IMG/VR virus record: IMGVR_UViG_3300025120_014919
Span: 32,001 to 96,000 of that record
Source: a virus
Length of the DNA: 64,000 bases
Reading direction: 5' to 3' (one strand)
Made by a program: the position numbers and the translations under genes
Notes under the pieces: generated by a model
What the model saw: the letters and a program-made list of their open reading frames with translations, nothing else
Told to the model about the DNA's origin: nothing
The model's database searches: none
In this document: positions 3,169-16,341 of the stretch, piece by piece
Position numbering within the stretch: position 1 is the first letter of the stretch
Layout of the letters: the number at the start of each line of letters is the position of its first letter

Positions 3169-4269
3169 ATGAGTAAAGAAATTGATGATATTTTATCTGT
3201 AATTGATAAATCTAATCCATATGCATCTTTCTTAAATGAAAGTGCTATTAGTAATGTAGATGGTTGGTTAGATACTGGGTCGATGGTACTTAATGGTATT
3301 GTATCTGGTTCATTATTCGGTGGTATACCGAGAAATAGAATGACCTTATTGGCTGGTCCAAGTATGACCGGTAAGAGTTTTATTTTGCAGAAGATTCTAG
3401 CTAATGCTCAAAAGGAAGGTTTAATACCAGTTATATTTGATAGTGAAAATGCTATTGATAAAGATGGGGCTGAAGCTTTAGGTTTAGATGTTAGTAAAGT
3501 AAAATATGTACCTGTTTTCAGTATTGAAGAATGTCGTAATACTATTTTTGACTTCTTAACTAAAGTAAAGGAAAATGGTCAAGAAGGTAAATTTATTATA
3601 GCTATTGATTCATTAGGTAATATGGAAAGTCAATTGCAGATTAATCGTCAGACAAAGGGGAATGTTAGTGCTGATATGGGTAGTAGAGCTAAAGCTATGA
3701 AATCTTTATTACGTACTTTAACTCAATTATCAGGATTAACTAAAACTACTATTTTAGCTACTAATCATATCTATGAAGATCCAGCTGCATTATTTCCTTC
3801 TTTAGTTAAAGCAATGCCAGGTGGTACTGCTACTGTTTATTTACCTTCAGTTACTATTCAATTAGCTCGTAAGCCAGTTAAAGAAGATAAAAATACGGAT
3901 GGTAAGTTAGCTGTAGGTCAGAAGAATTATTCAGGTGTTATTCTTAGAGCATTAACGGTAAAAAATAGATTCGTTAAGCAATATTTACAAGGTGAAATGT
4001 ATCTATCTTTTGATAAAGGTTTAAACAAATATTATGGGTTATTAGATCTTGCAGTAGGTTTAGGAGCAGTAATACAAACTGGTTCTACTTATACATTACC
4101 AGATGGTAAGAAACTTGGTTATTATAGTAAATGGAAAGACGATACAGAATTGTGGGATAATACTATTATACCCGTAGTAGAAGAGAAAATTAAACAAGAA
4201 TGGAAGTATAGTAATAAATCTGATGAAGATGAAATTATACCAGACGAAGTAGTAGAAGAAGATGAATAA
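3169..4269 (+). CDS. uvsX: RecA-like recombinase UvsX
   Basis: DTGSMVLNGIVSG, Walker A GPSMTGKS, FDSENA, IDSLG, TNH, KNRF. Confidence 0.93.
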   Translation: MSKEIDDILSVIDKSNPYASFLNESAISNVDGWLDTGSMVLNGIVSGSLFGGIPRNRMTLLAGPSMTGKSFILQKILANAQKEGLIPVIFDSENAIDKDGAEALGLDVSKVKYVPVFSIEECRNTIFDFLTKVKENGQEGKFIIAIDSLGNMESQLQINRQTKGNVSADMGSRAKAMKSLLRTLTQLSGLTKTTILATNHIYEDPAALFPSLVKAMPGGTATVYLPSVTIQLARKPVKEDKNTDGKLAVGQKNYSGVILRALTVKNRFVKQYLQGEMYLSFDKGLNKYYGLLDLAVGLGAVIQTGSTYTLPDGKKLGYYSKWKDDTELWDNTIIPVVEEKIKQEWKYSNKSDEDEIIPDEVVEEDE

Positions 4270-4477
4270 AATTATAACAGCCCAATGGTGCGGGCCATGT
4301 AACGCATTAAAAGATGAAATAAAAAATGCTAAAATTGAAGTAGAGTATATCGATGCTGATGACAATATGGATTTTTGTAACAAGCTTGGTATTAAATCTA
4401 TACCAACTTTAATCACTAGTGAAAAAGAAATTATTACTTCTTATCCAGAGATTCTCAAAAAATTGAATATATTATAA
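4262..4477 (+). CDS. Thioredoxin/glutaredoxin-like protein
   Basis: WCGPC active site and cis-Pro SIPTL motif. Confidence 0.85.
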   Translation: MNKIITAQWCGPCNALKDEIKNAKIEVEYIDADDNMDFCNKLGIKSIPTLITSEKEIITSYPEILKKLNIL

Positions 4478-4481
4478 TAAT

Positions 4482-5231
4482 ATGGTTAAAAAGAATAAAA
4501 TAGTAATTACGCTTAGCGGTGGTATGGATTCATCTGTTTTACTTTATAAAGCAGCTGAACAATATAAAGAAGTACACACCGTAACTTTCAATTATGGTCA
4601 ACGTCATAGTAAAGAGTTAGAAGCAGCTGAAAAGCAATTAGTAAATGCTAAGCATGACTTCCCTAACGTTACATTTACCAATAAATTATTAGACGTTACT
4701 TATATTAAGGATATAGCTGATACATCTTCCCTTACTAATGATAATATAGATACACCTGATGTAAAAGATATAATGGGTGAGGCTCAACCTAAATCATATG
4801 TACCATTCCGTAATTTAATGTTTTTGAGCATATTATTATCATATGCAGAAAAAATGGAAGCCGATGAAGTATGGTACGGTGCAGCAGAAGCAGATAGTTT
4901 AGCAGGTTATTGGGATGGTTCAGTACAGTTTGTCGATAAGATGAATCAGATTTGCTTGCTAAACCGTGAAGTAGATGTTAGAGTAAGGGCTCCCCTACTA
5001 AAAATGAGTAAAAAAGAGATTATTTTGAATGGAGTAGAGATTGGAGTCAATTTTGCTGATACATATACTTGTTATTCTGGGGAATATCCATGCGATGCAA
5101 ATAGCGCAAGTAGTGCTCTAAGATTAAAAGGGTTTGTAGACGCGGGACTACAAGATCCATTACGTTATAAACAGCAAGATAAGTTAGATTCAGTTTATAG
5201 AGATAATAATTGTAAATCTATATTAGATTAA
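4482..5231 (+). CDS. queC: QueC-like (7-cyano-7-deazaguanine synthase family) PP-loop enzyme with degenerate Zn motif
   Basis: SGGMDSS PP-loop, FNYGQRH, YVPFRN, APLL..SK; C-terminal TCY..CDANSASS..R in place of CGxCxxC. Confidence 0.88.
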   Translation: MVKKNKIVITLSGGMDSSVLLYKAAEQYKEVHTVTFNYGQRHSKELEAAEKQLVNAKHDFPNVTFTNKLLDVTYIKDIADTSSLTNDNIDTPDVKDIMGEAQPKSYVPFRNLMFLSILLSYAEKMEADEVWYGAAEADSLAGYWDGSVQFVDKMNQICLLNREVDVRVRAPLLKMSKKEIILNGVEIGVNFADTYTCYSGEYPCDANSASSALRLKGFVDAGLQDPLRYKQQDKLDSVYRDNNCKSILD

Positions 5232-6535
5232 TAACCCCATCTATTCATTCTTTCTTGAGAATGAGCATTTTGCATTTTTTGTCTATGCTGTGTTACTAGT
5301 TGCCGGTTAACTTCTTGTTGTGACATTGCAACTTGCTCTTCTTCTTCTGATTCAGACTTCTTTTTTCTAAGCTTACCTGTTACTGGGCATCTTTCTTCTT
5401 CTTCATCGTCTAAAGGTTCCATTTCACCCATTGTATCATCAGGGGCTGCGTCAGCAGGTGCATATTGATCATTAGCATCTTCATCTTTAGGTTCAATATC
5501 ATCATCATAATGATCTGCAACTGCTCTTGCATGATCCTGACCTGCTCTTTCTCGTTCTTTCTTCATTTCATCCTTTTCTTCGTTTTCTTCATCGTCACCT
5601 CCAAATGCAGCTTCTGCACGAGCTTTTTCATAGTCAGAAAGTTTACCATCGTTATCTAGATCAGCTTTCTTAAGATCGATTTCATCTTCTGATTTAGCTT
5701 GTATATTTCTACCATAACGATCAAATTTACCTTCTTCCCCTTCTGGAAAATCAGCAACTAATTTTTCTCTTTGACCCATTTCTATTTCACCACCAAATTT
5801 ATCAACTTGTTCCGTTTCACTAGGCTTAACGATAACAACTGATACAACATCGTCTTGTGATATATCGTCTAAATTAATTTTTTGACCTTTAAAAGAATTA
5901 AGTGTAACTCTATATTTTAATCCATCACTTACTACTGTGTATAAATCATTTTCACCAACTCCACCCTCGGAGTTTAAAGTCGTATCACTACCAAGATTCA
6001 ATTGTAAGGTTTCAAAACCTGTATCACCTTTCTTAAGACCTGCTTTTGCTGCTCCTCTTTCTCTTGTTGTAATTTTGACATCTGGTCTAGAAGCTAATGG
6101 TTTTGAAACATTAGCCATAATATTAATAGCATTTTGAATATCATCATCAGATAAATTTTCTAAATCTAATTCAGGATTTTCTTTTTGTAAATATCTAATT
6201 ACCTTAGTAGCAAAATATCTAGGGGTCATTGTACCTTTAAGATCTCTAATATCTTCCATACCCATTAGTTTTGCTCTAAGAGGATCAACAATCTTTTTAC
6301 CCCTTGCTTCTTCAACAATATGGTGCTGCCGGTCAGCATGCCCGAAGTTTGTATCGTCCATATATGTCGATGTACTCTCAGCGATAATTTCTGTATTTGA
6401 ACTCGGTTCAGCTATTGAAGGGTCCGTTATTTTTTTATTCTTTACTTCTTGTACAATATCGAAGTCTAGGTTATCCATGTAACTTGATGTGTTCTCGACG
6501 ATAATTTTTTTATTTGACCAGTTATGTAAACTCAT
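5228..6535 (-). CDS. Acidic late protein, candidate internal head/core protein
   Basis: 435 aa, D/E-rich, N-terminal duplication, DLDNDGKLSDYE EF-hand-like loop; TAAATA 5 nt before ATG. Confidence 0.75.
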   Translation of the reverse strand: MSLHNWSNKKIIVENTSSYMDNLDFDIVQEVKNKKITDPSIAEPSSNTEIIAESTSTYMDDTNFGHADRQHHIVEEARGKKIVDPLRAKLMGMEDIRDLKGTMTPRYFATKVIRYLQKENPELDLENLSDDDIQNAINIMANVSKPLASRPDVKITTRERGAAKAGLKKGDTGFETLQLNLGSDTTLNSEGGVGENDLYTVVSDGLKYRVTLNSFKGQKINLDDISQDDVVSVVIVKPSETEQVDKFGGEIEMGQREKLVADFPEGEEGKFDRYGRNIQAKSEDEIDLKKADLDNDGKLSDYEKARAEAAFGGDDEENEEKDEMKKERERAGQDHARAVADHYDDDIEPKDEDANDQYAPADAAPDDTMGEMEPLDDEEEERCPVTGKLRKKKSESEEEEQVAMSQQEVNRQLVTQHRQKMQNAHSQERMNRWGY

Positions 6536-6540
6536 ATTAT

Positions 6541-6574
6541 TATTTATTGATCTTTTCCATTTTTATACTATAAT
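6541..6574. promoter_or_regulatory. Back-to-back divergent promoters (late on - strand, sigma70-like on + strand)
   Basis: TAAATA on - at 6541-6546; TTGATC-N16-TATAAT on + at 6547-6574. Confidence 0.7.
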
Positions 6575-6582
6575 ATAGTTAT

Positions 6583-7254
6583 ATGTGTGGTATATATTGT
6601 AGCAATGATTTGACTTCTTTCGAAGTTTTACAAGAAGCTAATAAAAAGCGGGGTAATTTTTCAACTGGCATATTTTATTGCTATAATAAAGCTAATTATA
6701 GAGTACTCAAGGAAAAGAATAATATAAACTGGAATAAAACTAAAATACCAAATCAAAAAGGGCATTTATATCTCGGCCATAACCAAGCCCCTACTGAAAC
6801 CGGTAGAGAATGGAATGAAGAAACGTCACACCCGTTTTGGGTTGGTGATTGGATAGTAGCTCATAATGGAGTGTTAACTAATTATGAGGAATTAATAGAT
6901 GAATATATACCAATGCATGATAACCCGGTAGATAGTAGCATAATACCAGCATTATTAGATGAATTTGAATATACACACGGTCCTTGTGAAGATGCTGAAA
7001 CTGAAGTACAAAATATATTATACACAATAGAAAAACTTAAAGGTACATTTGCTTTATGGATAGTGAACATAAAAACGATGAACATTTATATAGCAAGACA
7101 AGGTAGTACGTTGTTTTACAAAGACGCTAATATATCATCAATTAAGGGTCAAGGTTATAAAGAAGTATCACAAGGAGTACTTTACAACTATTCATATGAA
7201 GGTCTAACAGAGTTAGACGGATTTGTATATGACTCACCATTTTTAACATTATGA
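6583..7254 (+). CDS. Class II (Ntn) glutamine amidotransferase domain protein
   Basis: N-terminal MCGI nucleophile, RG, GHNQAPT, HPF, AHNGVLTN, VDS, GTFAL. Confidence 0.9.
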   Translation: MCGIYCSNDLTSFEVLQEANKKRGNFSTGIFYCYNKANYRVLKEKNNINWNKTKIPNQKGHLYLGHNQAPTETGREWNEETSHPFWVGDWIVAHNGVLTNYEELIDEYIPMHDNPVDSSIIPALLDEFEYTHGPCEDAETEVQNILYTIEKLKGTFALWIVNIKTMNIYIARQGSTLFYKDANISSIKGQGYKEVSQGVLYNYSYEGLTELDGFVYDSPFLTL

Positions 7255-7724
7255 ACATAAATTACGTAACAATTAACGAATGTAACGATTTAGATAAACT
7301 TAGATTTATTAAATTTATTTACGATAATACGGATTCATTTATATTGAATACGTTCGGCCATACTTGGTCAGGTAGAAACTGGTGGGAAAAATTTCCTATT
7401 GAAGTATGTGTAGACGATGCCGGCCAAGTTTTAGGTTTACATGCTTATACCACTAATGATAAGGCAAAAGGTACAATGAAAACATATTATATAGTTACCT
7501 CGAAGGAAGTAAGAGGTAAAGGTGTAGCAAAACTTTTAATTCTAAATGCAATTTACAAACATAAAGATAAAATTAAAAATTATTATGTTAATACAGATGT
7601 TAGAAGTAATGGTGTACAATTTTTTAAAAAATTATTAGGTGATAATTTTACTATTGAAAGTAACGATTTCAATTCCCAAGATATAATTTTTGAGGAACCT
7701 ATTTATAATATAATAGATGAGTAA
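7251..7724 (+). CDS. GNAT-family acetyltransferase
   Basis: Acetyl-CoA binding motif EVRGKGVAKLL; overlaps the upstream stop. Confidence 0.7.
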   Translation: MNINYVTINECNDLDKLRFIKFIYDNTDSFILNTFGHTWSGRNWWEKFPIEVCVDDAGQVLGLHAYTTNDKAKGTMKTYYIVTSKEVRGKGVAKLLILNAIYKHKDKIKNYYVNTDVRSNGVQFFKKLLGDNFTIESNDFNSQDIIFEEPIYNIIDE

Positions 7725-8055
7725 ACTGAAGACAACTGGTAAACCTCGTCAGTTTTCAACTGGCGCACAACGAGATAATGCTGATGGTAAATTGCGTATG
7801 AGTTTATTACCTCATAATGCTTTAAATGGAGTAATGATGAGATATTTACAAGGAGCTGATACATACGGTGAAAATAATTGGAAGAAGGGTATGAAACATT
7901 CAGTTTTATATGATAGTGCAATGAGACATTTAATGCAAGATTTTACAGGTGATGATAGTGAAGATCATTTAGGAGCTGCTTTATGGAATATTATGGGTAT
8001 GATGTGGAATAGAGATAATAATCTTCATATGGATGATAGAAAAGAATATGAGTAG
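7717..8055 (+). CDS. dATP/dGTP diphosphohydrolase N-terminal (DUF5664-like) protein
   Basis: FSTGAQRD..GKLRMSLLP, GADTYGENNWKKG, DSAMRHL, EDHLGAALWN. Confidence 0.82.
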   Translation: MSKLKTTGKPRQFSTGAQRDNADGKLRMSLLPHNALNGVMMRYLQGADTYGENNWKKGMKHSVLYDSAMRHLMQDFTGDDSEDHLGAALWNIMGMMWNRDNNLHMDDRKEYE

Positions 8056-8707
8056 ATTTAAAATATATACTGCTACTAAGGATAAAAAAGAAGATACCTT
8101 ACTATATAAATCCCTTAATAAAAAATATCGCGATTTATCTGTACATTATGAAGAAAAAAATACTAAAAGTTTGCAAAGTTGTTATAACAGCTTTTTGGAA
8201 GACGCTCGTAGTAATAACGTTGATATCTGTGTGTTTATCCATGACGACGTTTCTATTAATTGCGACGATTTGTTGCATAGGTTGGACGATTATGGAAAAA
8301 TGTATACAGTTTTTGGTCTCGCAGGGGCTAGTACATGCAAGGTTAAAGAACCTGCTTTATGGCATCTTATGTCAGAAAGAAAGGACCAAAGAGGAAATGT
8401 TGCTCACGGACATCCTGACCAATATCAGTACACTTCGTTTGGTCCTATTCCAGGCCGTGTTTTGGTTGTTGATGGGGTCTTTATCGGTATTAATGTACAA
8501 ACTTTACCTACTAATGTAAAGTTTGATGAATCTTACCCATCTAAGTTTCATTATTATGATTTAGATTTTAGTCTAGAATGCAATAAAAATAATGTAAAAA
8601 TAGGGGTAGTTGATATACCAATAATACATTCAAGTCCTGGTTTGACTAACCCTAATAAAGAATTTTATGAAGGGCAAAAATATTTTATAAACAAATGGAA
8701 ACGGTAG
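8033..8707 (+). CDS. GT-A fold glycosyltransferase-like protein
   Basis: YN..L, VFIHDDV (DxD-like), GLAG, VDGVFIG, FDE..FHYYDLDFSL; real start probably at the second Met (8048). Confidence 0.75.
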   Translation: MIEKNMSRFKIYTATKDKKEDTLLYKSLNKKYRDLSVHYEEKNTKSLQSCYNSFLEDARSNNVDICVFIHDDVSINCDDLLHRLDDYGKMYTVFGLAGASTCKVKEPALWHLMSERKDQRGNVAHGHPDQYQYTSFGPIPGRVLVVDGVFIGINVQTLPTNVKFDESYPSKFHYYDLDFSLECNKNNVKIGVVDIPIIHSSPGLTNPNKEFYEGQKYFINKWKR

Positions 8708-9132
8708 TATTGGTTACAGGTGGATTTGACCCACTGCATTCCGGTCATTTAGCATATCTTAAAGCAGCTCGTAGGCTGGGAGATAAACTAATTGTTGGGG
8801 TTAATTCTGATTCTTGGTTGGAACGAAAAAAAGGTAAAAACTTTTTACCGTTAGCTGAACGTTTTGAAATAGTATCTGCTTTAAAATATGCAGATAATTG
8901 TATACTGTTTAATGATGATGATAATACTGCTATAGAGGCTATTAGAAATGTTATGATGTTATTTCCTTTTGATCGAATTATATTTGCAAATGGAGGGGAT
9001 AGAAAACAAGGTAATGTACCGGAGGAAGACCCTAATTTATTTCCAGAAAGAGAAATAATTTTTCAGTATGGTGTAGGTGGAGCAGATAAAAAAAATAGTA
9101 GTAGTTGGATATTGCAAAGATGGGAAAAATAA
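8695..9132 (+). CDS. Cytidylyltransferase-family protein
   Basis: TGGFDPLHSGH, VGVNSD, FANGGDR, KNSSS. Confidence 0.88.
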   Translation: METVVLVTGGFDPLHSGHLAYLKAARRLGDKLIVGVNSDSWLERKKGKNFLPLAERFEIVSALKYADNCILFNDDDNTAIEAIRNVMMLFPFDRIIFANGGDRKQGNVPEEDPNLFPEREIIFQYGVGGADKKNSSSWILQRWEK

Positions 9133-9431
9133 CAGAAACGAGGTGGGGTAGCTACAATGTTTTATTTGATCGTAATGGTTATAAAATAAAAACTTTACAT
9201 ATTAGTCCAGGTAAATCTTTAAGCGATCAACGTCATTTTAAAAGAAGTGAGCATTGGTTTATATTAGAAGGTGAATTATGCATTAACGGTGACCTATATC
9301 ATAAAAATGATTTTATCAATATACCAGTTGAGAATTGGCATAAACCAGCTAATATTAGTAATAAAGAATGCATTATTTGTGAAATACAATACGGTGAAGA
9401 GTGCATTGAAGAAGATATTGAAAGAAGATAA
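9105..9431 (+). CDS. Cupin (mannose-6-phosphate isomerase type II C-terminal-like)
   Basis: RWGSY, PGKSLSDQRHFKRSEHW, EIQYG..EEDIER. Confidence 0.85.
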   Translation: MDIAKMGKITETRWGSYNVLFDRNGYKIKTLHISPGKSLSDQRHFKRSEHWFILEGELCINGDLYHKNDFINIPVENWHKPANISNKECIICEIQYGEECIEEDIERR

Positions 9432-10771
9432 TGGAAGATATAGGTAGATTAAATTTAGATTATTATGAGCAGGTTATAGTTTATAAGAGCTTGACTAACG
9501 AAAGTTATTTAACTCAAATTATAGACCATATAAAGCCGGATTATTTTAATGATAAAAATATTAAGACTGTCTTTAGTTTAATAACCAATTTTTATATTAA
9601 AAGGCAAAGTATACCTACTATTACTGAATTAAAGTCATACTTAATTAATGATGAACTTAAGGAAAGTTTTAGATCTGTTGTAAAGAATTTTCCTAATATT
9701 GATAAGAACTTTAATGATGAAGAGTTAACTTCTAATACTGAACGGTTCTTAAAAGAAAGAGCAATATATAATACAATGTTATCTGTTGCCGAGGACGTTA
9801 GTAAAGGTGAAGTTAATACAAGTTTTATTTTAGATAGTTTCGAAAAAAGCTGTAACGTTAATTTAAAGGAAGAGATAGGTTTAGATTTATTTGAAAATAT
9901 TGATAAGGTTGTAGATGATCTAAACGTAGACCAACCTACAATATCTTCTGGTTGGAAATGGTTAGATGATAAGATAGAGGGAGGCTTCTTACAAAATGGT
10001 AGATCGTTGTACGTATTTGCTGGTGAAGCTAATGTTGGTAAATCTATATTTTTAGGTAATATAGCTTGTAATATAGCTTCTAAAGGCAAGACGGTTTTAG
10101 TTATAAGCCTTGAAATGTCAGAGATGATATACGCAAGAAGGTTATCATCTAATATAACTAGAATACCAATGAGAGAATTAAAAGGTGCTGGTCAATCTTT
10201 ATCATCTCAAATAAAGAGTTATAATAATGGTAAACCTAATAGTAAGATTTTAATTAAAGAGTTTCCACCTAGTACTGTTACGCCGCAGAATATACAAGGC
10301 TATATTACAGAATTAAAAAATAGAGGTATTAAAGTTGATGCAGTGGTACTTGATTATTTAAATTTGTTAAAAAGTCCTCTTGGTGATAACTCTTATGAAA
10401 GGGTTAAGCATGTTGCAGAAGGTATTCGTGCTTTAAGTTATGTTTTTGAATGCCCGTTTATTTCTGCTACTCAGTTAAATAGATCTGGTTACGATGAAGC
10501 AAACCCTGGTTTAGATACGATATCAGAATCGATTGGAATGGCTGCTACTGCTGACTGTATTTTCAGTATATTCCAAGACGATGAAGATAAAGAATTAGGT
10601 ATAGTTAAAATGGGTATGATGAAAAATAGATATGGTGCTAATTATGGTCATACAGCATTACGGTTAGATTATGATACCTTAACTATTTCTGAAGATGAGA
10701 CACTAAACGTTGATGATGAAGGTAGTGAGATGTCTGATTTAACTAATACTCTTAACATGTTGAGTAATTAA
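9431..10771 (+). CDS. 41: Replicative DNA helicase (T4 gp41-like)
   Basis: Walker A GEANVGKS, SLEMSE, IKEFP, LDYLNL, SATQLNR, MKNRYG. Confidence 0.94.
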   Translation: MEDIGRLNLDYYEQVIVYKSLTNESYLTQIIDHIKPDYFNDKNIKTVFSLITNFYIKRQSIPTITELKSYLINDELKESFRSVVKNFPNIDKNFNDEELTSNTERFLKERAIYNTMLSVAEDVSKGEVNTSFILDSFEKSCNVNLKEEIGLDLFENIDKVVDDLNVDQPTISSGWKWLDDKIEGGFLQNGRSLYVFAGEANVGKSIFLGNIACNIASKGKTVLVISLEMSEMIYARRLSSNITRIPMRELKGAGQSLSSQIKSYNNGKPNSKILIKEFPPSTVTPQNIQGYITELKNRGIKVDAVVLDYLNLLKSPLGDNSYERVKHVAEGIRALSYVFECPFISATQLNRSGYDEANPGLDTISESIGMAATADCIFSIFQDDEDKELGIVKMGMMKNRYGANYGHTALRLDYDTLTISEDETLNVDDEGSEMSDLTNTLNMLSN

Positions 10772-10793: not shown

Positions 10794-11669
10794 ATGCCTA
10801 AGATCCATATAATTACAGATGCAGATCTCGATGGAGCTGGTTCGTATCTTTGTTTAAAGCAAGCATATAAAGATACTACATTAACATACTCCGTTACAAC
10901 TGAAAAAAAGTTTATTAATGATATAGCCTATTTTAAATTTGAAGATTATGATTTAGTAATTATTAGTGATTTAAATCTAAAAGAAAGTGAAATTAGACTT
11001 TGTGATTTAAAAAACGTCATTGTAATTGATCATCACGCTGAGCATATAGAACTAATTCATAATTATAAAAATGCTAAACCAATAATAAAGGATTATCCTT
11101 CATGTACTAAGTTAATATATGATACTTTTAAGTTAGAAGATAAGCTTAATAAAAATCAAAAATTATTGGTTAAACTAATAGATGATTATGATAGTTATAC
11201 ATTAAAATTACCGTTTAGTAAACCATTGAATCAAGTATTTTGGTCTTATACAGGTGACAGAGTTAATAAATTTGAAAATGATTTTAAAGATGGTTTCTTC
11301 GGTTTTAATCAGTTTCAAAAAAATGCTTTAAAAATTATTGAAAATAAAATTGAAAGATTTTTTAAAGAAGAAACAATTCATAGGGGTAATTTAAAAATAG
11401 GCGATAAAAATTATAATGTTGCAGGTGTTGTGGTGACTTTTAGCCCTAATGAAATAGCAGAACGTATAATTAGTACATATGGAGTAGATTTTGTAATAAT
11501 GATTAATCTAATCGGTAAGAGTGTTTATATGAGACGTAGTACAGATTGTACGTTAAATATGGGTAAAATAGCTGCAAAACTAATGAACGGTGGTGGTCAT
11601 GAAGATGCCGCTGGTGGAACTTTAAACGATTCAGTCATTAATATTACTAAATTACTAAAACCCCTATAA
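10794..11669 (+). CDS. DHH/DHHA1 phosphoesterase
   Basis: DADLDG, ISDL, IDHH, GGGHEDAAGG. Confidence 0.88.
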   Translation: MPKIHIITDADLDGAGSYLCLKQAYKDTTLTYSVTTEKKFINDIAYFKFEDYDLVIISDLNLKESEIRLCDLKNVIVIDHHAEHIELIHNYKNAKPIIKDYPSCTKLIYDTFKLEDKLNKNQKLLVKLIDDYDSYTLKLPFSKPLNQVFWSYTGDRVNKFENDFKDGFFGFNQFQKNALKIIENKIERFFKEETIHRGNLKIGDKNYNVAGVVVTFSPNEIAERIISTYGVDFVIMINLIGKSVYMRRSTDCTLNMGKIAAKLMNGGGHEDAAGGTLNDSVINITKLLKPL

Positions 11670-15468: not shown

Positions 15469-16341
15469 ATGAATATTTTAATTCTTGGCAAAGGTTATGT
15501 AGGTAACCATCTCCAAAAATACCTATCTGAGCAACAGGTACCGTATAATGATATATTTTTTAAATCAAAAAAAGATTTAGACTATACAAATTCAGAAGTG
15601 TTATATAACTTTTGCCTTTCAGAAGATATTGACACTGTAATTAATACATCTGGTTATACAGGTGCACCTAATGTAGATGGTTGTGAAGATAATAAAGAAG
15701 ATTGTTTTTATTATAATGTCAATGTACCTGTAATTATTGAAGGTATTTGCAAATCTTTAGATATGGATTTTATTCATATTGGGTCTGGTTGTATATATGG
15801 GGGTTATGATAAAGAGTATACAGAAGATGATACACCTAACTTTGGTGTATTTGAAAAGCAATCAAGTTTTTATAGTAAAACTAAACATATATCTGAACTA
15901 ATGCTTGATACTAATTTTACTAATATTATTCGAATTAGAATGCCTATCGAAAGTAAATTAACTAAGAAAAATCTATTAACTAAACTTATCAATTACCCTA
16001 ATTTAATCGATTTCGTTAATAGTAAAACAGATATGGTAGTTCTATGCGAATTTATTGAAACTGTAATGAAAAACTTTAAAGCTGGTATATATAATGCAGT
16101 TCATCATAGATCATTAGGTACTGAAGAAGTTATTGACATTTTAAAAGAATATGGTATTAAAAATGATAATTGGAAGTTTATACCTTATGATGAATTAGAA
16201 ATAAAATGTAATAGAAGTAATTGCGTATTATCTAATCAAAAAGCAAAAGATGATTTTAACTTTGATTTCGGTACCGAAGAACATTATCTAAGATTGAACG
16301 CTTCACTTATAGGAAAGGAACTAAAATGGGAAAAGAAATAG
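15469..16341 (+). CDS. NDP-4-keto-6-deoxyglucose 3,5-epimerase/4-reductase (UER/RmlD-like SDR)
   Basis: GKGYVG, TGAPNVDGCE, SGCIY, PNFG..SFYSKTK, RIRMPI. Confidence 0.82.
   Translation: MNILILGKGYVGNHLQKYLSEQQVPYNDIFFKSKKDLDYTNSEVLYNFCLSEDIDTVINTSGYTGAPNVDGCEDNKEDCFYYNVNVPVIIEGICKSLDMDFIHIGSGCIYGGYDKEYTEDDTPNFGVFEKQSSFYSKTKHISELMLDTNFTNIIRIRMPIESKLTKKNLLTKLINYPNLIDFVNSKTDMVVLCEFIETVMKNFKAGIYNAVHHRSLGTEEVIDILKEYGIKNDNWKFIPYDELEIKCNRSNCVLSNQKAKDDFNFDFGTEEHYLRLNASLIGKELKWEKK

Follow-up and report, generated by a model that had tools for sequence, protein, structure and literature searches.

A QueC, Gat and GNAT locus of an uncultured marine T4-like phage as a likely arm of a dispersed DpdA3-type 7-deazaguanine DNA modification system

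7-Deazaguanines in DNA protect phages from restriction, and modification systems of the DpdA3 type can replace every guanine. Eight 7-deazaguanine DNA bases are known, and new ones came from the tailoring genes DpdM, DpdN and DpdL. A 64,000-nucleotide stretch of viral DNA (the window; bases 32001-96000 of a 105,613-bp IMG/VR contig, G000, estimated by CheckV to be ~50% complete) carries a QueC gene followed, after an inserted antisense gene, by genes for a class II glutamine amidotransferase (Gat), a GNAT acyltransferase, a DUF5664 protein, a GT-A glycosyltransferase (GT), a nucleotidyltransferase and a cupin, leading into the replicative helicase DnaB. This arrangement raises the question of whether the locus serves the synthesis of a modified DNA base and, if so, by which route. 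In the reading that we favour, and that we regard as fairly likely, the stretch is the QueC and tailoring arm of a complete but dispersed DpdA3-type 7-deazaguanine DNA modification system, in which the base is acylated by GNAT. The system is probably canonical, post-replicative and of the DpdA3/preQ1 (7-aminomethyl-7-deazaguanine) type, an archaeosine route being unlikely.

The window (GC content ~30%) comes from a marine T4-like phage that is uncultured and deep-branching. Its DNA polymerase shares only ~31% identity with that of any cultured T4-like phage, and no nucleotide match was obtained when the locus was compared by blastn with 50,697 cultured-phage records. Three longer relatives were used for comparison: G001 (185 kb, 88% complete), G006 (209 kb, with terminal repeats, 100%) and G007 (221 kb, 100%). 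Contig G000 is syntenic with the 59.7-172 kb part of G001, other G001 regions lying outside its coverage. Searches of IMG/VR with Gat yielded 25 close and ~60 more distant contigs in which the gene order recurs, and chance can therefore be dismissed as its cause. The counts given below refer to the 74 related loci from these searches that run from Gat to DnaB. The order DNA polymerase-UvsX-QueC-[variable insert]-Gat-[GNAT or DpdN]-[DUF5664]-GT-DnaB-...-gp32 is kept down to 40% Gat and ~50% polymerase identity. Conserved linkage in relatives had been set beforehand by the original prediction as its refuting test, and QueC, Gat and the GT are indeed linked in this way.

The early pathway genes were found ~28 kb upstream of the locus, where FolE2, a QueD variant and a divergent QueE occupy positions 3990-8864 of G000. 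FolE2, QueD, QueE and QueC are all encoded on the window's own contig, as had been allowed for when FolE, QueD and QueE were noted to be missing from the window. A search for QueE in the window's genome with PF04055 (Radical_SAM) was negative; the gene was found later through a homologue (50% identical) that directly follows QueD in L047, a relative with a rearranged locus. Of the seven NCBIfam matches of this protein, the top five are the five QueE models (4e-10 to 2e-6), none of which comes near its curated cut-off. Among solved structures the protein matches QueE 4njg (6.5e-4), and the spacing of its cluster cysteines is C-x3-C-x11-C. G001 has three radical SAM proteins (330-369 aa) that were also weighed as candidates for QueE; they were rejected as generic and because their genes share a variable glycan island with PIG-L and transketolase. 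The QueD variant has HCxxxHGY in place of CxxxHGH. Flavobacterium phage immuto_2-6A has the same motif in its QueD and fdPreQ1 in its DNA (fdPreQ1 being the formylated form of dPreQ1, the deoxynucleoside of preQ1), and the variant is therefore taken to be a working subtype.

The genes for the last common steps were seen in the relatives. Beside the major capsid gene gp23, G001, G006 and G007 share a conserved trio consisting of a 268-aa protein (u268), an AAA_28 P-loop protein and a bimodular QueF. Over 95% of its length the 268-aa protein, tested as L037:3771-4577 of the relatives, shares 51% identity with the protein of immuto_2-6A that is annotated as a DNA guanine transglycosylase; its identity is 49% to a protein of the CP220 group and 29% to a phiST protein, and the transglycosylases of phiST, CP220 and immuto belong to the DpdA3 family of Cui et al. 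2023 (PMC10516641). With its AlphaFold2 (AF2) model (predicted local distance difference test score, pLDDT, 84.7) the top 50 Foldseek matches were all tRNA-guanine transglycosylases (TGT), with probability 1.0, and its protein-atlas neighbours are named TGT/DpdA. To judge from these similarities and the model, u268 is a DpdA3 DNA-guanine transglycosylase with a TGT fold. The QueF of the relatives contains the ESKSIKLY (NADPH) motif, the catalytic Cys motif and the HFHE motif, which together mark it as a true nitrile reductase, and it matches immuto QueF at 1e-73. In immuto_2-6A the gene order is DpdA3/DpdN/P-loop/QueF, and the trio of the clade has the same order without DpdN. 7-Deazaguanine in DNA has DpdA as its signature protein, and phages with DpdA3 are modified completely (PMC10516641).

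As far as can be predicted from these genes, this is a large clade of uncultured marine T4-like phages with the full FolE2-QueD-QueE-QueC-QueF-DpdA3 set. That the locus belongs to a 7-deazaguanine base modification system, as originally proposed, is borne out by the pathway genes on the contig and by DpdA3 and QueF in the relatives, and the suggestion of a non-canonical route falls with the finding of the full set. The proposed search for folE, queD, queE and dpdA thus succeeded on the window's own contig for the first three, and dpdA was seen only in G001, G006 and G007.

No match to PF01702 (TGT), PF20314 (DpdA4; DUF6610) or PF23859 (DpdA) was found in the window's genome or in the relatives. 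Since PF01702 and PF23859 also miss the known DpdA3 of CP220 (FN667788), even at E = 1 in a six-frame search, these negatives carry no weight. The failure of the Pfam TGT/DpdA models with DpdA3 means that surveys based on hidden Markov models (HMMs) under-count such systems. KVP40.0120 and KVP40.0122 had no homologue in the clade. The clade is very common in marine metagenomes (3,825 DpdA3 homologues in a protein set clustered at 90% identity), and if the DNA of such abundant ocean phages is heavily modified, sequencing and virome methods that depend on restriction would be biased.

In the envisaged pathway GTP would be converted by FolE2 and QueD to carboxytetrahydropterin (CPH4), by QueE to 7-carboxy-7-deazaguanine (CDG) and by QueC to 7-cyano-7-deazaguanine (preQ0), with Gat serving as a glutamine-hydrolysing ammonia donor for QueC, in a two-subunit version of the Gat-QueC fusion. 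Reduction by QueF would yield preQ1, and DpdA3 would exchange guanine in replicated DNA for the deazaguanine. GNAT would then acylate the 7-aminomethyl group, most simply by acetylation, to give acyl-dPreQ1. DUF5664 would act as an accessory dNTP pyrophosphohydrolase shaping the nucleotide pools, and the GT-A enzyme would use a UDP-sugar, the modified base being one speculative possibility for its acceptor. The system as such would be of a known kind and lie on the DpdA3/preQ1 branch; new would be the abundant clade that carries it and the tailoring set, in which GNAT stands in for DpdN and the unassigned Gat and GT are added.

The proposal of acylation comes from the gene slot that follows Gat. 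This slot holds GNAT in 47 of the 74 loci and an ORF (open reading frame) of ~180 aa in 14, it is empty in 13, and the two genes never occur together (0/74). GNAT orthologues in distant relatives also score as Pfam GNAT. The ~180-aa ORF is 40-43% identical to immuto DpdN (YP_010114479) over the full length (phmmer 1e-35 to 1e-40), and the ORF of locus L049 matches Formyl_trans_N above the cut-off. In the window the slot holds GNAT, without a PurN-like Formyl_trans_N (DpdN) protein. For DpdN, formylation of the preQ1 aminomethyl group has been proposed (PMC10516641). The best reading of a GNAT in the slot of DpdN is therefore that of another N-acyltransferase acting on this amine, and the role of a base decorator, which had been suggested for GNAT from the window alone, has become credible. 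The predicted base of the GNAT-bearing phages, acetyl- (or other acyl-) dPreQ1, is undescribed in DNA; if the prediction is true, acetyl-dPreQ1 would be the ninth such base, with +42 Da on dPreQ1. At the DpdN loci UvsX is 93-97% identical to that of the window and DnaB drops to ~56%, and the exchange of GNAT and DpdN is apparently tied to a recombination break.

QueC and Gat show the features expected of an active pair to different degrees. In QueC the PP-loop motif SGGxDS is invariant and the TIGR00364 score is above the curated cut-off. The four zinc-binding cysteines (C..CGEC..C) are kept in the basal relatives L106 and L047, and three of them are lost in the window and most of the clade (DA[EN][ST][AP]SS), the rest of the clade QueC being strongly conserved, with an invariant C-terminal cysteine, C244. 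In Gat the catalytic residues Cys2 (MCG start), Asn95-Gly96 (HNG) and Asp117 are invariant in 45 homologues, which predicts an intact N-terminal nucleophile (Ntn) glutaminase site. The Gat family comprises 665 matching clusters at 50% identity, nearly all of them stand-alone and about 205-235 aa long. The Gat and QueC genes of the window are unfused and 1.35 kb apart, with the antisense late gene in between. They match the two halves of the fused family phrog_10428, and a class II Gat of ~200 aa lies directly 3' of QueC in KVP40 and in Vibrio phage 2.275.O, two unrelated cultured lineages. These observations agree with the earlier view of Gat and QueC as a split pair, and the adjacent pairs in KVP40 and 2.275.O mean that the split is not new in sequence databases. 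Prediction of a Gat-QueC complex gave weak support, with a score of 0.48 against 0.00 for the best of 3 controls; of 80 solved complexes, 58 reached the mark applied, as did 2 of 110 mismatched pairs, and at values of 0.60 or below it was reached by only 7 of these complexes and by the 2 mismatched pairs. Between runs at least 94% of contacts agreed, with partner pLDDT of at least 87. Gat always accompanies QueC, whether the lineage has DpdN, GNAT or no enzyme in the slot, and QueF is present too in the complete relatives. Taking this distribution into account, the role of ammonia donor for the two amidation steps of QueC is favoured for Gat over synthesis of the amidine G+ (archaeosine base).

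Among the downstream genes, DUF5664 is present in 50 and absent from 24 of the 74 loci. Conversion of dNTP to dNMP and PPi is known for the DUF5664 proteins of Arthrobacter phage Wayne and Acinetobacter phage SH-Ab 15497; the stand-alone enzyme of Wayne prefers dATP > dUTP > dGTP, dATP being favoured approximately tenfold relative to dGTP, and stand-alone DUF5664 proteins are found as well in phages whose DNA is canonical (PMC12884076). By analogy, a dNTP pyrophosphohydrolase is the probable identity of the window protein; the same 2026 paper led us to reject the idea of PF18909 as a non-catalytic N-terminal domain. A third of the loci do without DUF5664 and the inserting enzyme is post-replicative; we therefore regard DUF5664 as an accessory pool enzyme and not as the engine of base substitution.

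The GT-A gene is far more constant, being present in 73 of the 74 loci, and its H70-D71-D72 motif (HDD, corresponding to DXD) is invariant. Neither the GT-A enzyme nor DUF5664 had a sequence match in the PDB, and no homologue of the GT-A enzyme was found in the 50,697 cultured-phage records. Its AF2 model (pLDDT 94) best matches the UDP-binding majastridin 2qgi in the PDB (template modelling score, TM, 0.72). In L047 the order is QueC-Gat-x-GT-DUF366, the GT still following QueC-Gat. That the GT lies next to Gat almost everywhere suggests that it takes part in the pathway. A role in a modification of the glucosyl-hydroxymethylcytosine or -hydroxymethyluracil type was considered and rejected, a ThyA-family gene being present only in G007 and not in G001 or G006. 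We also entertain, tentatively and with less confidence than the acylated base, a doubly tailored, chemically undescribed guanine replacement made with a glutamine-dependent two-subunit QueC/Gat, namely dPreQ1 acylated by GNAT and/or a side chain glycosylated by GT-A. If true, a deazaguanine side chain glycosylated by GT-A would be the first case of a glycosylated purine in DNA of any kind. The nucleotidyltransferase and the cupin fared differently: one or both occur in only 16 of the 74 loci, and the nucleotidyltransferase is absent from G001. They are variable sugar(-nucleotide) cargo, contrary to their inclusion among the members of the locus in the original prediction.

Several observations weigh against a DpdA3-type system with GNAT acylation. 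DpdA3 and QueF are unseen on G000, which ends before the syntenic region, and their presence in this phage is predicted from the three relatives. The scores of QueE and QueD fall short of the curated equivalog cut-offs, and the QueC of the window is without three of the four zinc-binding cysteines (CGxCxxC is replaced by D-A-N-S-A-S-S, and only the first Cys aligns). Gat could alternatively make the amidine G+, as in the Gat-QueC of phage 9g. With respect to acylation, the basal lineages have QueC, Gat and GT and no acyltransferase, which makes GNAT a late addition. In a maximum-likelihood tree of DnaB the DpdN loci fall together in one clade (100/100) within the GNAT bearers, indicating that the swap happened once; the exchange would then be one evolutionary event and would provide no repeated independent evidence. 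The genome is rich in glycan genes, and the GT, conceivably also GNAT, could serve a glycan and not DNA. Finally, the identity of the modified base is a prediction from the gene content.

Comparison with known systems places the product probably on the preQ1 branch rather than on that of G+. The closest likeness is to immuto_2-6A (fdPreQ1; PMC10516641), which shares the DpdA3 (51%), the QueF, the QueD with HCxxxHGY and the DpdA3/P-loop/QueF order, and whose DpdN has its homologues (40-43%) in a sister subclade of the window. Unlike immuto, the window has GNAT at the place of DpdN and FolE2 instead of FolE, and the genes are spread over three loci in a T4-like genome; the stand-alone Gat and the conserved GT-A of the window were undetected in immuto by tblastn. 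The CP220 group of Campylobacter phages is likewise T4-like and has a DpdA3 49% identical to the clade enzyme, but no Gat homologue was found there by tblastn; according to the literature CP220 stops at CDG/ADG, the amide of CDG, with complete replacement by the deoxynucleoside dADG. The Gat-QueC fusion of Enterobacteria phage 9g and Crenarchaeota (dG+/G+; PMC6884629) resembles the window in its module of class II Gat and QueC, the phrog_10428 halves, and differs in that the window has two genes split by a late gene and the clade has QueF and DpdA3, not DpdA1. KVP40-like Vibrio phages and 2.275.O (folE, queF, queC and a PF00310 Gat) share QueC followed by a ~200-aa Gat, with QueF and FolE nearby. 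In contrast to the window, KVP40 QueC keeps the zinc cysteines, and the KVP40 and 2.275.O regions that were read contain no GNAT, DpdN, DUF5664 or GT neighbours. Phage nt-1, related to KVP40, has a DpdA2-type enzyme and low modification levels according to the literature. As to DUF5664, the same Pfam domain occurs in the Z-genome phages Wayne, where it is also stand-alone, and SH-Ab 15497, where it is fused to DUF550 (PMC12884076); the window is without PurZ or a Z-genome context and without the DUF550 fusion.

Three other explanations of the locus have to be considered. In the first form in which its function was proposed, the split Gat/QueC would make an archaeosine-type base (G+ or ADG), DUF5664 would deplete dGTP, incorporation would be non-canonical and take place at replication, and GNAT or GT would decorate the base. 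Gat-QueC fusions with DpdA do give dG+ in phage 9g (PMC6884629), Gat and QueC match the halves of one fused family, stand-alone DUF5664 hydrolyses dGTP among other dNTPs, and some dG+ and dADG are present in the DNA of Vibrio phage nt-1, which is grouped in the literature with G+-type phages and whose relative KVP40 has the QueC-Gat pair. We nevertheless consider this explanation quite unlikely: the true QueF of the relatives and the DpdN of one subclade both belong to preQ1 chemistry and argue against an archaeosine-type product, the canonical FolE2/QueD/QueE set is present, and depletion of dGTP is difficult to reconcile with DpdA3 being a post-replicative transglycosylase (PMC10516641) and with a DUF5664 family that is missing from 24 of the 74 loci and whose characterised member prefers dATP. 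Alternatively, the deazaguanine genes could feed tRNA, supplying preQ1/queuosine and tuning translation of the AT-rich phage genes, with GNAT, GT and the sugar genes unrelated. The steps from FolE to QueF make the tRNA queuosine precursor, and Pfam HMMs detect no TGT or DpdA; yet these HMM negatives are uninformative, as the CP220 DpdA3 is missed likewise, the clade transglycosylase is 49-51% identical to the DpdA3 of fully modified phages (PMC10516641), and DpdN homologues occupy the locus, all of which makes supply to tRNA very improbable.

It is also conceivable that only QueC, with or without Gat, belongs to a deazaguanine pathway, and that GNAT, GT-A, nucleotidyltransferase and cupin are glycan machinery in an insertion-tolerant UvsX-DnaB region. 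The phage has many sugar genes (RmlD-like at 15469-16341, APS-kinase-like and sulfurylase-like at 1660-2449, glycosyltransferases and a variable sugar island upstream), the nucleotidyltransferase and cupin vary among loci, and the folds nearest to the GT are generic UDP-sugar GT-A enzymes. The position of the GT is less easily explained in this way, since it directly follows Gat/GNAT/DUF5664 in 73 of the 74 loci, down to 40% Gat identity, and follows QueC-Gat in L047. The alternation of GNAT with DpdN in a single slot also argues against glycan machinery, and no clade-wide ThyA-type hydroxymethylase giving another DNA acceptor was found in G001, G006 and G007. Taken together, these points make the glycan explanation unlikely, and the DpdA3-type modification system with GNAT acylation is retained as the preferred reading.

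The features of the locus and of the upstream pathway genes are listed in Table 1. Families in the window were assigned from Pfam, NCBIfam and PHROG matches. The gene calls of the original prediction, seven ORFs on the plus strand and the antisense ORF, hold in both position and family.

Table 1. Coordinates of the genes and sites at the locus (window positions) and of the upstream pathway genes (G000 positions)
Feature	Position	Strand	Evidence or remark
UvsX	3169-4269		just upstream of QueC
QueC (7-cyano-7-deazaguanine synthase family)	4482..5231	+	PF06508 1e-52; TIGR00364 162.3 bits, cut-off 150.3; PDB QueC 2pg3/3bl5
Antisense late gene, 435 aa, acidic, low-complexity	5228..6535	-	TAAATA-N5-ATG motif at start
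Sigma-70-like promoter match, TTGATC-16-TATAAT	6547..6574	+	9 nt before Gat start codon; consensus match only
Gat, stand-alone class II (Ntn) glutamine amidotransferase	6583..7254	+	GATase_6 28 bits (weak); GlmS N-terminal model 5e-13
GNAT acyltransferase	7251..7724	+	Pfam GNAT 24.9 bits (weak)
DUF5664 (PF18909), stand-alone	7717..8055	+	68.5 bits vs cut-off 27
GT-A glycosyltransferase, Glyco_tranf_2_5 (PF13712)	8033..8707	+	42.7 bits
Nucleotidyltransferase, CTP_transf_like	8695..9132	+	RfaE domain II model nearest
Cupin (MannoseP_isomer; mannose-6-phosphate isomerase C-terminal type)	9105..9431	+	Pfam, NCBIfam
DnaB/gp41-type replicative helicase, last gene of the operon	9431..10771	+	PF03796; phrog_19 9.5e-78
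FolE2	G000 7812-8864		PF02649 8e-73; NF010200 277 bits
QueD variant (PTPS)	G000 5838-6518		PF01242 3e-19
Divergent QueE, 246 aa	G000:C1:3990-4730	-	NCBIfam QueE models, PDB 4njg, L047 homologue

Successive genes from Gat through DnaB overlap by 1-28 bp, which indicates a single operon. Promoter-like sites are not clearly enriched in the region (41 vs 29 ± 5.8 in shuffled sequences). The antisense ORF between QueC and Gat is a late gene inserted into the early operon and lies outside the pathway. Its 435-aa product had no Pfam, PHROG or NCBIfam match and none among cultured phages, and both the length and the sequence of the ORF vary strongly among relatives. An antisense low-complexity gene is wedged into each of the two deazaguanine loci, at 5228-6535 of the window and at G000:C1:6606-7778, both on the minus strand; of this pair of proteins one is acidic (435 aa, window) and the other lysine-rich (390 aa, G000:C1:6606-7778). 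Both evolve very fast, with 30-60% identity where their neighbours have ~90%. The two ORFs were considered as DpdA candidates and rejected, being of low complexity and without homologues, and the 435-aa ORF having the late-promoter motif.

A few further genes lie near those discussed above. The AAA_28/thymidylate-kinase-like P-loop protein (G001:C1:22233-22787; L131:10472-10996) is always found between DpdA3 and QueF, in the clade as well as in immuto_2-6A. A DUF366 (PF04017) protein (G001:C1:41544-42131 and L047:12082-12663) is 75-79% conserved across G001, G006 and G007, its gene is located directly 3' of the GT in the QueC-Gat-GT block of L047, and it may be another pathway member. A DHH/DHHA1 phosphoesterase gene follows DnaB directly on its 3' side (window 10794-11669), and the RmlD/epimerase-like sugar gene at 15469-16341 is within the replication module. 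The genes at 1660-2449, between DNA polymerase and UvsX, encode an adenosine phosphosulfate (APS)-kinase-like protein (141 aa) and a CTP_transf/ATP-sulfurylase-like protein (123 aa); they are absent from the 88%-complete relative G001, and the pair may be a variable sulfation cassette.

A hypervariable island occupies the same position in two of the genomes (G001:C1:72000-83500 vs G000:C1:9500-17000). In G001 it contains the three radical SAM proteins, PIG-L, a transketolase-like protein and a GT2, and in G000 other glycosyltransferases and sugar enzymes. In some relatives the matches to DnaB, DNA polymerase and UvsX are in two pieces, 0.02-1.6 kb apart (L092:13822-16737, L102:1243-7040 and L081:5015-6327), which suggests inteins, introns or homing-endonuclease insertions.

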